64,000 nucleotides of DNA, taken from Candidatus Thalassarchaeum betae (GTDB lineage: Archaea > Thermoplasmatota > Poseidoniia > Poseidoniales > Thalassarchaeaceae). The DNA is taken from contig PSPG01000005.1 of NCBI GenBank assembly GCA_003193925.1, forward strand, positions 17,840-81,839, in the 5' to 3' direction. Under the pieces are notes generated by a model. It saw only the letters and a list, made by a program, of their open reading frames with translations, ran no database searches and was not told where the DNA came from. Of this stretch, positions 346 to 4,217 are shown piece by piece. The position numbers and the translations under genes were made by a program. Every line of letters starts with the position of its first letter. Positions within the stretch are counted from its first letter, which is position 1.

Positions 346-2127
346 TCATGCATCACAACTGAGCACTGAATCCGCTGTAGCAGGAAAGTTGAGTCTGGCA
401 GCAGCGAATGCTGATTCCACCGAGTCGAACGTCACGCCCCTGGAAGCCGCTCTGGCGCGGGCGGAGACCAGTCTCCAAGCTCCCTTGCCGCCGATTCCCG
501 GGATGGCCATGAACTGCTGCTGCGTGGCGGAGTTGACATCGAGGCCTACCTCGACCCCTGTGATGCTGCGCATGCCATGGCCCGTCACCAGTATGTCAGA
601 GCCGGTCTCGAGGGGGATCTTGTAAGGGACTCCGACGAGAATCGGGTATGCTCCTATCTGCCGGCCGAAGGTGATTCCGGGCGCACCGTGGATGGATGCC
701 TCGCGGTAACTCGGGTCGAGGACCTGCTCGGGCCTGCGGATGCGGTCGTTGTGCGCCTCCCACCAGACGTCCCTCAGGATGGTGCCGATCGGCAGCATCT
801 CCTTGAGGAGCGGTCGGTCGATGCTCTCGCGCACCTCGCGCTTGAACTCGCGGAAGGTCTGCTCCGGGATCTCCTGAAAGCCCCTCCCCTCGACCTGCCG
901 GATGTTGATCCTCCTCAGCCACAGGCCCTCGTTGCGCAGGCTTGCGAGCAACTCGAGGTTCATCCGATATGTCGCCTCGGTCTCGCCGTTGAGCCCGGCG
1001 ATGAAATTGAGTCCCGGCAGCAGCCTCGGCAGGCCCCTCTCGCCTCGCTGCCTGCCGTACTCGTTGACCAGTCGGATGGCGATCCGCAGTTGCTTGGGGT
1101 TGCAGTTCAGCCAGTTCTGCTCGTGCACCGTCGGGTCCGCCGACTCGAGCCCGAAAGAGAGTACTGCGCCATCGGAGAGTGTCTCGACAAGCGTCTTTGT
1201 GATCTCGGTCGAGGGCTCGATGCTCTCTGCGACTATCGAGGGATTGGCGTTGTCCACATGGAGGATGCCGAGTCTCTCGTCCTCGCGCGCACCATGCAGC
1301 ACCTTGGCTATCGGCTCGGGGTCGGGAATCGGGTACTCGAGGTCCTCGACTCCTTCGGCGCGGTAGGTGTAGATGTCAGTCGCGCCGCCGATGCGCACAT
1401 GCCTGACTCCGGCATCCATCGCCGCGGTGAGCTCACCCAGGACGTCTTCCTCGCTGCGCCACAGTGGCAGCCCCTTCTTCGGCTCTATGCAGAACTTGCA
1501 GCCTCGCTTGAAGCGGACGCAGCCCTGGTAGAGCTCGATCTCGTAAGTCAGGGGGCCGGGAGTGCCGTCAGGCGCAGTCAGGTCAGGGTGCTCCATGACG
1601 GCCTTCGACGAGGCCCCGGCATGCGCCCATCTGGTCCATTGCTCGGGCGTCCTCCTCGCGTGACCCCATTCCCCGGTCGACAGGTAGTGGTCGAGACTCG
1701 CATCGGTGTCCTGGACCGCGCAGAAAAGGTTCGAGCGCAGCGGGGTCCAGCCGTCGTAGCGCCAGTGGCGGATTGCCCAGCCGCCGCACAGGACTGGCTG
1801 CCCGCTGGGCAGTATCGCGAGGACCTCGTCCATCTCGCGGCGGCTGATCGGGGTGCCTCTGACGTACTTGCCAGGCACCACAGCGCCTGCCAGCACCACC
1901 GCGCCGTCCAACTCGGACAGCTCGAGCTTGAGGGCATTCCTGTCCTCGGGCTCTGCCAGACGGGGCTTCTGGTACATCCGCCACTCATCGATGGTCATGT
2001 AGGTGTATGGGACGCCTCGGGCCTCCAGCACTCCGCAGATGTAACGTATGTGGAAACCGAGGTAGTTCGGCACCCCGAAGGCGGCAGGCTCGTCCTCGTA
2101 ACCGTCGAGGACAAGCCATCCTTCCAT
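346..2127 (-). CDS. Radical SAM protein with C-terminal helix-hairpin-helix (COG1031-like)
   Basis: N-terminal LDGYEDEPAAFGVPNY, Cys motif GCVRFKRGCKFC, LRRINIRQV, FGRQIGAYPILVG, and HhH IPGIGGKGAWRL. Confidence 0.85.
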   Translation of the reverse strand: MEGWLVLDGYEDEPAAFGVPNYLGFHIRYICGVLEARGVPYTYMTIDEWRMYQKPRLAEPEDRNALKLELSELDGAVVLAGAVVPGKYVRGTPISRREMDEVLAILPSGQPVLCGGWAIRHWRYDGWTPLRSNLFCAVQDTDASLDHYLSTGEWGHARRTPEQWTRWAHAGASSKAVMEHPDLTAPDGTPGPLTYEIELYQGCVRFKRGCKFCIEPKKGLPLWRSEEDVLGELTAAMDAGVRHVRIGGATDIYTYRAEGVEDLEYPIPDPEPIAKVLHGAREDERLGILHVDNANPSIVAESIEPSTEITKTLVETLSDGAVLSFGLESADPTVHEQNWLNCNPKQLRIAIRLVNEYGRQRGERGLPRLLPGLNFIAGLNGETEATYRMNLELLASLRNEGLWLRRINIRQVEGRGFQEIPEQTFREFKREVRESIDRPLLKEMLPIGTILRDVWWEAHNDRIRRPEQVLDPSYREASIHGAPGITFGRQIGAYPILVGVPYKIPLETGSDILVTGHGMRSITGVEVGLDVNSATQQQFMAIPGIGGKGAWRLVSARARAASRGVTFDSVESAFAAARLNFPATADSVLSCDA

Positions 2128-2172: not shown

Positions 2173-3435
2173 CTAGTTTCGGCGCGGGCGCCTCTTGCGC
2201 TCCCTGCCGCCGCTGGGGTTGGACTCCTGCACGCTCATCTTGCGGCCGTGCAGCTTAGTGTTGTTGAGTTCCCTGATGGCTGCGAGGCCGGCCTTCTTGC
2301 TGGTGAATGTGACGAAGGCGAAGCCCCTCGAGCGTCCGGTCTCCCTGTCGGTGGCGATGTGGACCTCCTTCAGTTCGCCATGCGCCGAGAAGATCTCCCT
2401 CAGCTCGTCCTCGGTGGCATCGTAGGAGACTCCGCCCACGAACAGCTTGGCGCCCATCGCCTCACCTGCTCCCGCGCGTGCCGCGTTCATCACCTCGCGC
2501 TCCTTGGCGAGCTCGTCCCTCGAGGCCTTGCCGTCCTTGACCCTGTCCATGCAGTCCCGGCATCGAATCGGCTTGCCGGGAGTCGGTTTGAATGGAACTT
2601 GAGTCTTGGTTCCGCACAAGGTGCAGGTAGTCGGATGCATCTCGCGCCGCGGCCTGCCTCCTCCGGCGCCTCGTGACTGGGATGCCCGTGCACGGCGGGC
2701 CGAGGCCGGCATCTCGTGACTCATTCCACGGCGGTGATCGGCTACTGGGGAGAGGTAGGGGCGTGCGCCGTCGTGGCCGAGCAACGGCTCGGCCTCGGGC
2801 GACCAGCGCGCCCCGGGCCGGTTCAGTGACTGTATGTCCTCGCCGATGACATGCCCGTGGCCGAAGCCATTGGACAGGACCCTGTAACCGGTGTAGTCGC
2901 AGCGTGGGCATGCGACGTTGAAGTCGGGAGTCTCGCTGGAAGTCTCCAGGTCCTCTCCGCACTGCGGGCAGAGAGCGTGGAGGACTCCGAGCTCGGGGTC
3001 ATCGCGGGTCGTGGCCTTGAGCATGGGGTCGAGCTCGACTATGCGCGCGCGGATGATGTCCCTCTTGCGCATGGCATCGCCGGCTGAGGGAAGGAAGCGG
3101 TCGACGAAATTGGTGACGTAGATGTCAGCGAACAGTTTCAGTGCTGGGAGGTCCCTGTGCCCCCCGTCCTTGCCCTCGATGTGGAGCAGGCGGACCTCGG
3201 CGGTCTTGGGGTTGAGCCGATTGACCTCAGCGATGATCACATCGCCGATCTCGGGGGAGTTGACCGATGGCCTGATCGACTCCACTGACATCTTCCCGTT
3301 GCTTTGGACCAGGGTCCCTGTGACCACTGCGACGGCGCCCGATACATCATCGTGAATCCCATCGCCGGCCTCCACACCGTCGGGGATTGCGACGGAGGAG
3401 CCTGGTGTGACGAAGTCGCCTGCTGCAGCGGTCAT
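2173..3435 (-). CDS. csl4: Exosome RNA-binding protein Csl4 fused to a CxxC-x17-CxxC zinc ribbon and an RRM domain
   Basis: FVTPG N-terminus, S1 domain (GDVIIAEV...DIIRARIV), Zn ribbon (CPQC...CPRC), then CTLC...CRDC, then an RRM (KLFVGG RNP2; RSRGFAFVTF RNP1). Confidence 0.85.
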   Translation of the reverse strand: MTAAAGDFVTPGSSVAIPDGVEAGDGIHDDVSGAVAVVTGTLVQSNGKMSVESIRPSVNSPEIGDVIIAEVNRLNPKTAEVRLLHIEGKDGGHRDLPALKLFADIYVTNFVDRFLPSAGDAMRKRDIIRARIVELDPMLKATTRDDPELGVLHALCPQCGEDLETSSETPDFNVACPRCDYTGYRVLSNGFGHGHVIGEDIQSLNRPGARWSPEAEPLLGHDGARPYLSPVADHRRGMSHEMPASARRARASQSRGAGGGRPRREMHPTTCTLCGTKTQVPFKPTPGKPIRCRDCMDRVKDGKASRDELAKEREVMNAARAGAGEAMGAKLFVGGVSYDATEDELREIFSAHGELKEVHIATDRETGRSRGFAFVTFTSKKAGLAAIRELNNTKLHGRKMSVQESNPSGGRERKRRPRRN

Positions 3436-3491: not shown

Positions 3492-4106
3492 TCAGGGAGG
3501 TGTGAGCCGCCAGAAAGCGACTCTTGTGCGCCCCCGTTGGCGGCTGTGGTGCGAGTATGCCGCCGGGAGGGCGAAGTCAGCCTCGCCGTATCTCTCGGTA
3601 GACCAGTCCGAGGCCTCGAACAACGGCTCGATGTGACTGGCTTCGGCGCTGTGCAGAAGATGGGCAGGGAGGCCGGAAGACAGGATGGCGTCGAGGAAGG
3701 GGCGGTCTGCCTTGGCGGTCTGGCGGCCCCAGGGCGGGTTGCTGACGATCAAATCGGCAGCGCCAAGATCGACCGGGTCCGAGCCCAGCGTCGCGGAGAC
3801 GATCTCGACGGACTCAGCAAGCCCCATCGACTCGGCGTTCGCCAGCGCCGCATCGCAAGCCCCTGGGTCGGCCTCCACGAGAATTGCTCGGCCCGCGCCC
3901 ATCGCAAGCGCCCCCAGCCCGAGCACGCCGTTGCCCGCACCGAGGTCTGCCACGGTGCAGCCCTCGGTGAGGTCGCCGAACGCGGAGATGTCGGTGAGCC
4001 AGCGAGCCGCTAGGTCGCCGTCGGTGGTGTACTGCTCGAGCTCGACGGAGTCGCATGGGTGCGGAAGCAGGCCCGACAGCAGCATCCCGAGCCTGCGGAC
4101 CCTCAT
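3492..4106 (-). CDS. METTL5-family SAM-dependent methyltransferase (putative rRNA m6A methyltransferase)
   Basis: LEQYTT, DLGAGNG motif I and NPPW motif IV. Start moved to the ATG at 4106 (MRVRRL). Confidence 0.85.
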   Translation of the reverse strand: MRVRRLGMLLSGLLPHPCDSVELEQYTTDGDLAARWLTDISAFGDLTEGCTVADLGAGNGVLGLGALAMGAGRAILVEADPGACDAALANAESMGLAESVEIVSATLGSDPVDLGAADLIVSNPPWGRQTAKADRPFLDAILSSGLPAHLLHSAEASHIEPLFEASDWSTERYGEADFALPAAYSHHSRQRGRTRVAFWRLTPP

Positions 4107-4217
4107 GGGCTCGCTAGGGCCGCTAGTACCTAAGAACCAATTCAGCGACTCTCCTGAGCGACCACCTCCCAACATGCGGGCAGAGGCACAAAATACGATG
4201 GGTTGTTCGCCCGATGC

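Follow-up and report, generated by a model that had tools for sequence, protein, structure and literature searches.

The 64,000-nucleotide stretch of Candidatus Thalassarchaeum betae DNA analysed here (contig PSPG01000005.1 of assembly GCA_003193925.1, positions 17,840 to 81,839; hereafter the window) carries, at positions 2173..3435 of its reverse strand, a gene for the RNA exosome cap subunit Csl4 that continues at its 3′ end into further modules of RNA-binding type. The original prediction, made from the letters of the DNA, described this gene as a single open reading frame (ORF) of 420 codons encoding Csl4 (N-terminal domain, S1 domain and zinc ribbon), a linker, a CxxC-x17-CxxC module, an RNA recognition motif (RRM) and a basic tail, and proposed that the whole formed a built-in substrate-targeting module on the archaeal exosome. 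The ORF list and the translation contain no internal stop in the 420-residue frame, which ends in a stop codon, and profile searches and reading of the sequence agree on the domains named. We describe below the architecture, reality and history of this fusion, and then consider what it may do at the exosome.

Architecture of the fused protein

The protein begins as a recognisable Csl4 (all positions given for the gene are on the reverse strand of the window). Its N-terminal domain (residues 1-55, positions 3271..3435) aligns with the Archaeoglobus fulgidus Csl4 structure 2BA1 from residue 8 onwards, and is followed by the S1 domain (residues 56-148, positions 2992..3270) and by a C-terminal zinc ribbon with the pattern CPQC...CPRC (residues 149-192, positions 2860..2991), which aligns with the ribbon of 2BA1. 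The NCBIfam Csl4 profile NF034126 matches residues 7-191 at 91.5 bits, against a cut-off of 90, and over 1-178 of its 180 positions; 2BA1 aligns end-to-end with the N-terminal 200 residues (E 3e-14, positions 3-177 of 179). Residues P11, G12, G24, G26 and G40 of the N-terminal domain are invariant, also when compared with the stand-alone Csl4 of the sister order, and the ribbon cysteines (C156-x2-C159...C176-x2-C179) do not vary in any of the 40 family members compared, nor against the stand-alone Csl4 forms aligned.

Beyond the Csl4 part lies a conserved segment that matches no described family (residues 204-243, LNRPGARWSPEAEPLLGHDGARPYLSPVADHRRGMSHEMP, positions 2707..2826), and after it an arginine/glycine-rich (R/G) stretch read from the sequence (residues 244-263, ASARRARASQSRGAGGGRPR, positions 2647..2706). 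The latter leads into the CxxC-x17-CxxC zinc module (residues 264-300, positions 2536..2646), whose cysteines are C271-x2-C274-x17-C292-x2-C295; it is matched by PF23477 (residues 264-299, 4.9e-13, 49 bits against a cut-off of 27) and by TIGR04272 (2.6e-13, 49.5 bits against a cut-off of 36). A predicted long helix (residues 301-328, positions 2452..2535) links the zinc module to a canonical RRM (residues 329-404, positions 2224..2451), which PF00076 (RRM_1) matches over residues 331-400 (2.4e-21, positions 1-69 of 70). The RNP2 (KLFVGG) and RNP1 (RGFAFVTF) motifs of this RRM are intact, as are their aromatic residues in both the sequence and the family consensus. The protein closes with a basic tail, again read from the sequence (residues 405-420, ending ...GGRERKRRPRRN, positions 2176..2223), and the family consensus retains a lysine/arginine-rich C-terminal end. 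Searches with the Pfam and NCBIfam profiles found no CCHC family match to the protein. The CxxC-x17-CxxC domain is known just as a zinc-binding domain of small proteins, of unknown function, and members of the family from Methanosarcina mazei bind zinc (PMC12704099).

An AlphaFold2 monomer model was built from 40 family members and its structural neighbours were sought with Foldseek. The predicted local distance difference test score (pLDDT) is 80-86 for the Csl4 N-terminal domain, 68-86 for the zinc module, about 80 for a helix at residues 306-327 (within the linking helix 301-328, which is moderately conserved) and 80-89 for the RRM, whose secondary structure follows the order E-H-E-E-H-E. 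The best Foldseek match of the model is 2ba1_A (E 2.7e-12, target-normalised template modelling (TM) score 0.63), and the RRM matches those of RBM39, ELAVL1 and CIRBP with TM scores above 0.9. The basic C-terminal tail is modelled with a pLDDT below 50.

What the original prediction called a ‘linker’ between Csl4 and the zinc module is no plain linker: residues 204-243 are the most conserved module within the family, with a majority fraction of 0.90 (against 0.80 for the S1 domain and 0.74 for the RRM) and an entropy of 0.43 bits. The core of the segment, LN.xG.RW...AE, is common to the Csl4-RRM-RRM families described below. For residues 186-265 there was no Pfam match at E values up to 10 and no meaningful match in the PDB, and the segment has no paralogue in the genome. 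Its pLDDT is below 50, and conservation combined with predicted disorder is what peptides that fold upon binding a partner typically show; this highly conserved orphan peptide may be a new interaction motif.

A genuine and lineage-wide fusion

Several lines of evidence confirm that the Csl4-Zn-RRM fusion is genuine, present throughout its lineage and under purifying selection. A search of 5.8 billion proteins recovered hundreds of full-length relatives, 417-446 aa long, from marine metagenomes and from metagenome-assembled genomes of the Poseidoniales (Marine Group II), and whole genomes of the family to which the window belongs (Thalassarchaeaceae; f1 in our survey) gave one full-length, stop-free match for every genus sampled (16 of 16). 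The 1263 nucleotides of the gene itself are reproduced in four independent metagenome assemblies from different studies, with 0 gaps and 0-9 substitutions. Among 12 orthologues from the same genus, the ratio of nonsynonymous to synonymous substitution (dN/dS) is 0.07 for the whole gene and almost the same in its two parts (0.071 for Csl4 and 0.068 for the extension); by module it is 0.02 for the S1 domain, 0.06 for the orphan segment, 0.13 for the R/G stretch, 0.02 for the zinc module and 0.06 for the RRM. The gene is also expressed: metatranscriptome contigs cover it in parts, including nucleotides 2582-2776, where the conserved segment meets the zinc module.

These observations bear on the possibility that the fusion is an artefact, in which a lost stop codon or a misassembly has joined csl4 to a separate Zn-RRM gene, or in which the Zn-RRM half is in reality made from the internal Met266. 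Databases do hold short proteins that could be so understood, some with the zinc module and RRM only (149-157 aa) and some with the RRM only (124-125 aa), and two genes are called at the locus on two long contigs (L032:2120-3465 and L033:3-1313). However, the short proteins are as long as gene calls beginning at the internal Met266 or Met296 would make them, mostly on contigs under about 4 kb, and the two long contigs carry lesions, each confined to a single contig: in one a frameshift falls within the conserved peptide EAE|LGHDGARPYLSP, and in the other an in-frame stop of TGA type replaces the second cysteine of the CPxC motif in the zinc ribbon of Csl4 itself. Neither lesion is a split at a domain boundary. 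The original prediction had named separate genes in relatives, together with a lost stop here, as the observation that would overturn it; among the relatives within the order we found no such two-gene state, and the assemblies run through the locus without a gap. Set beside the hundreds of full-length proteins, the single open frame in all f1 genomes and purifying selection that extends even over the junctions, a lost stop or misassembly is already refuted, and we give this reading as a whole, the internal start included, almost no credence. The broken copies on the two contigs may reflect errors of sequencing, or else true pseudogenes carried by part of the populations.

We found no description of a Csl4-RRM fusion in the literature searched. 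In databases the fusion proteins are named ‘CxxC-x17-CxxC domain-containing’, ‘cold-inducible RNA-binding protein’ or ‘hypothetical’, and these partial names hide the fact that the proteins are the organism's Csl4.

Distribution and history in the Thermoplasmatota

A survey of domain architecture across 251 Thermoplasmatota genomes from 122 genera found the Zn-RRM extension in all f1 genomes and a different extension in two further families of Poseidoniales (f2 and f3), while the sister order in the same class has Csl4 unfused. In f2 and f3 (presumably Marine Group IIa) the gene encodes Csl4-RRM-RRM proteins of 477-485 aa in the same neighbourhood; these have the same Csl4 core, the LN.xG.RW...AE motif and a C-terminal RRM with a basic end in common with the window protein, but they have a second RRM and lack the CxxC module (the f3 genomes contain no PF23477 domain). 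The R/G stretch and CxxC module of f1 align at the position which RRM1 occupies in f2 and f3.

The fusion is absent from the sampled genomes outside the Poseidoniales, where Csl4 open frames are about 185-220 aa long, in keeping with the expectation of the original prediction that an archaeal Csl4 usually has about 180-200 residues. A few longer Csl4 frames were considered as possible further fusions and rejected, their extra length being upstream sequence that is free of stops in GC-rich genomes. In the sister order Csl4 is a stand-alone protein of 184 aa (159 bits), encoded directly downstream of the same methyltransferase gene that adjoins the fusion, and a separate RRM gene of 84-89 aa is located elsewhere. 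That RRMs are uncommon in archaea, as had also been stated, holds only in part for the Thermoplasmatota: 35 of the 122 genera have one, which makes them fairly common, although outside the Poseidoniales every one of them is a small ORF (80-158 aa) standing by itself.

Upstream of csl4 and co-oriented with it is the gene of a small methyltransferase of 227 aa (3492..4175, reverse strand; Pfam MTS, PrmA and Cons_hypoth95), which precedes csl4 in f3, f2 and the sister order as well; this synteny, held in common with the stand-alone Csl4 of the sister order, identifies the fusion as the orthologue of that protein. Downstream, and again co-oriented, lies a gene for a radical SAM protein of 593 aa with a helix-hairpin-helix tail (346..2127, reverse strand; Pfam Radical_SAM and HHH), found directly after the fusion at f1, f2 and f3 loci but not after the stand-alone Csl4 of the sister order; the link of this gene to csl4 thus dates from the fusion itself. 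Genes of about 590 codons for this radical SAM protein stand at other loci too (L018:4282-6054, L032:3508-5298 and L033:1350-3119), and in the sister order genes with PKD domains take its place after csl4.

The likely source of the zinc module is a kind of gene still seen in the sister order. There, a family of larger genomes (f5) has stand-alone proteins of 62-68 aa with an RGG-rich N-terminus and a CxxC-x17-CxxC domain, and one of them is 57% identical to the window protein over residues 250-300. Genes of this kind lie at L023:2327-2515 (reverse strand; genome G072), G072:C119:684-794 and G061:C4:55735-55845. A gene of the f5 type was likely the kind captured by the f1 Csl4. In the simplest history, one or more RRMs were fused to a stand-alone Csl4 in the ancestor of the order, and a small RGG+CxxC gene was later captured in the ancestor of f1. 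The sister order thus has, as separate small genes, members of both domain families (the small RRM of bacterial Rbp type and the small CxxC-x17-CxxC protein) which in the window are domains of Csl4, but the fused RRM has a signature of its own.

The original prediction had proposed a phylogeny of the RRM as a test for a bacterial donor. Between the stand-alone Thermoplasmatota RRMs (NIYVGNL...KGFGFVEM) and bacterial Rbp proteins, with which they cluster, identity is 55-69%, whereas it is only about 41-46% between the fused RRM (KLFVGG...RGFAFVTF) and those stand-alone RRMs. In a domain tree of 80 columns, and so of weak resolution, fused and stand-alone RRMs are set apart from each other; the f1 RRM falls together with RRM1 of f2 and f3 (Shimodaira-Hasegawa-like approximate likelihood ratio support 86), near the first RRM of a bacterial tandem-RRM family, and RRM2 of f3 lies near the second RRM of the same family. 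However, approximately unbiased (AU) tests allow both a single clade of all fused RRMs (p 0.72) and one that unites them with the stand-alone RRM of the sister order (p 0.26), and the f3 cassette matches the bacterial tandem-RRM proteins (P0226 group; 35% identity, 3e-29) and a moss tandem-RRM protein (31%, 5e-26) about equally well. An exhaustive representative search by the RRM on its own returned mostly eukaryotic proteins with several RRMs, ranked on summed scores, and gave no donor signal, and one with the stand-alone RRM of the sister order returned only its own 84-aa family. The results therefore do not single out a donor.

The bacterial tandem-RRM proteins are 282-298 aa long, encoded between a diacylglycerol kinase gene and mreB/mreC (L142:1514-2380, L143:3579-4427 and L144:813-1661); their RRM1 has the same signature as the archaeal fused RRMs (KLFVGGLS...RGFAFVTF), and their basic tail contains ...W..W..D(E/D)D. 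Within the Poseidoniales, the two RRMs of Csl4-RRM-RRM in family f2 (L019:2514-3968, reverse strand) are each other's closest relatives in the tree, while RRM1 and RRM2 of f3 fall into different clades, a contrast suggestive of a duplication particular to f2 or of gene conversion there.

In other lineages the C-terminus of Csl4 also seems to accept additions. An otherwise canonical Csl4 of another Thermoplasmatota family (L152; G153:C115:11700-15000, reverse strand) has a 54-aa arginine/glycine-rich tail, ...RGGRRNDGNRGRGGGGRNDRRDRSRR, and the Csl4 of genome G180 (L151) has an acidic tail of 40 aa.

A probable tethered RNA-binding arm at the exosome cap

The choice of substrates by archaeal exosomes is poorly understood; in Sulfolobus it depends on Rrp4 and the DnaG protein, which is bound through Csl4. 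The T. betae genome (1.48 Mb, 92% complete) has a complete exosome core: an SBDS-Rrp4-Rrp41-Rrp42-L37ae operon is intact on contig C19, and its Rrp4 has N-terminal, S1 and KH domains. No gene of the genome other than the fusion scores for Csl4 above the cross-hit of Rrp4, and the fusion is thus the sole Csl4, as well as the sole RRM and the sole CxxC-x17-CxxC domain, of the genome. Compared with canonical archaeal Csl4 (A. fulgidus AF0206, PDB 2BA1 and 3M7N, NF034126), the window protein has the same order of N-terminal domain, S1 domain and four-cysteine ribbon and, as the only orthologue in its genome, the same methyltransferase neighbour as in the sister order; it is unlike it in its 228-aa C-terminal extension and in the unusual divergence of its Csl4 part.

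We think it probable (at roughly 0.7) that the protein caps the exosome and that its extension serves as a tethered RNA-binding arm. The N-terminal domain would anchor the protein on the Rrp41/Rrp42 ring, with the S1 domain and the ribbon sitting at the pore in the arrangement seen in solved structures of archaeal exosomes, while the R/G stretch, the CxxC zinc module, the RRM and the basic tail would be suspended from a flexible but conserved tether. Such an arm could bind single-stranded RNA, either raising the local concentration of substrate or imparting a sequence preference, and the RNA so captured might be destined for 3′-5′ phosphorolysis or for tailing. We favour this reading because the ring-anchoring domain is conserved and the rest of the exosome is present, because two RNA-binding designs occupy one position in sister families, and because a Sulfolobus Csl4 to which an RNA-binding domain was fused at the C-terminus gained poly(A) binding. 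In that work the N-terminal domain of Csl4 was the main anchor to the ring, the engineered protein bound poly(A) strongly, and exosomes capped with the fusion degraded A-rich RNA faster (PMC4227792).

The closest functional precedent is to be found in Sulfolobus, where DnaG bound through Csl4, and the engineered Csl4-NT fusion, present an extra RNA-binding module at the cap (PMC3672285, PMC4227792); but DnaG is not part of the Csl4 chain and has, besides a Toprim domain, an N-terminal domain of its own for binding RNA, whereas in the window the RRM and zinc ribbon are covalently joined to Csl4, and DnaG is still present.

The original prediction had instead looked to eukaryotes, and to ZCCHC8/RBM7 in particular. 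In the nuclear exosome targeting complex (NEXT; ZCCHC8/RBM7/MTR4) and the Trf4/Air/Mtr4 polyadenylation complex (TRAMP; Air1/2), RNA reaches the exosome by way of a zinc finger and an RRM or some other RNA-binding component; these are separate polypeptides, with CCHC knuckles, arranged around the MTR4 helicase. The window protein differs in being one chain with the cap subunit, in its CxxC-x17-CxxC module (a ribbon or treble clef and not a CCHC knuckle) and in having no helicase encoded in its conserved neighbourhood, and we found no homology between its zinc module and the zinc parts of NEXT or TRAMP. Of the original proposal, then, a substrate-targeting module built into the exosome stands as the best reading of a genuine, selected fusion in the sole Csl4 of the genome, while the likeness to eukaryotic adaptors is one of functional analogy only.

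There are points which weigh against a tethered arm. Its joining of the ring and its binding of RNA are predicted, and any effect on exosome activity is likewise something we infer. The monomer model has low overall confidence (pLDDT 63, predicted TM score 0.30) and is uninformative on docking; DnaG, a known Csl4-bound RNA binder, is retained, so the extension is no simple replacement for it; the proposal gives segment 204-243 no role; and the Csl4 part scores about 90 bits, against 150-205 in other Thermoplasmatota. This last observation, a profile score barely over its cut-off, would also be expected if the protein had left the exosome, its diverged Csl4 serving as just one more S1/Zn RNA-binding module of a free multi-domain protein, an RNA chaperone or post-transcriptional regulator of the cold-shock/CIRBP type, with the cap made of Rrp4 alone; intact Rrp4 can indeed form homotrimeric caps in crystallised exosomes (PMC3672285), and some sources label the protein ‘cold-inducible RNA-binding protein’. 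Yet the ring-anchoring N-terminal domain keeps its hallmark invariant residues relative to canonical Csl4 and is modelled confidently, there is no second Csl4 in the genome, and the DnaG and Rrp4 of this lineage score low too, which suggests fast evolution overall and not a specific release of Csl4. We therefore regard a function away from the exosome as unlikely.

Similarly improbable, in our judgement, is that the protein is a cap subunit whose extension does something other than recruit substrate: it might dock the exosome to the ribosome, DnaG, a helicase or the membrane, autoinhibit the pore, or promote RNA-dependent clustering through its R/G-rich and basic stretches. That the most conserved element is a 40-aa orphan segment of predicted disorder, as for a peptide folding on a partner, would suit such a role, as would the conserved neighbours, which are RNA- or ribosome-modifying enzymes. 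On the other hand, the RRM retains the canonical RNA-contacting residues of its RNP motifs, and sister families have either Zn-RRM or RRM-RRM at the corresponding position, which suggests that it is RNA binding that has been selected.

The tethered-arm reading can be taken further, in a form that we offer tentatively and would sooner doubt than assert. The Poseidoniales may have rebuilt their exosome cap with a cis-tethered, RNA-selecting arm in two interchangeable designs (RGG-Zn-RRM and RRM-RRM), in which segment 204-243, ultra-conserved and apparently disordered, would provide a new docking surface between the arm and the ring, DnaG or another partner, and so decide which RNAs are let in; the fusion would then be an archaeal, single-chain counterpart of the eukaryotic adaptors.

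If the arm acts at the cap, an entire order of highly abundant marine archaea has made classical RNA-binding domains a fixed part of it, in two designs, and provides a natural experiment, open to reconstitution, on how added RNA binders affect exosome specificity, tailing and decay. The fusion also shows the C-terminus of Csl4 to be permissive for the addition of domains, as the engineered Sulfolobus fusion suggested.

The DnaG of this genome deserves separate mention. It is encoded at 131986-132816 of contig C4 in genome G000 (L031:1033-2199, reverse strand) and matches NF003108 at 350 bits over profile positions 1-276 of 419, its last ~110 residues being unmatched. Poseidoniales DnaG proteins score 320-350 bits, compared with 440-550 in other Thermoplasmatota, and their C-terminal part is weak or split. 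Conservation of the DnaG C-terminal domain has been reported to correlate with the presence of an exosome. We considered whether the RRM arm had replaced DnaG and rejected the idea: DnaG is present in all 141 genomes surveyed for it, and the order is not alone in having a weakly matched C-terminal part. Some f3 genomes match the profile over positions 1-418, and DnaG is split in other lineages too.

Besides the Rrp41/Rrp42 ring, the genome encodes, outside the window, an RNase PH of bacterial type (TIGR01966, 232.9 bits against a cut-off of 141.5); its gene, at 95532-96389 of contig C20 in genome G000 (L028:2032-2892), adjoins a molybdopterin adenylyltransferase gene.

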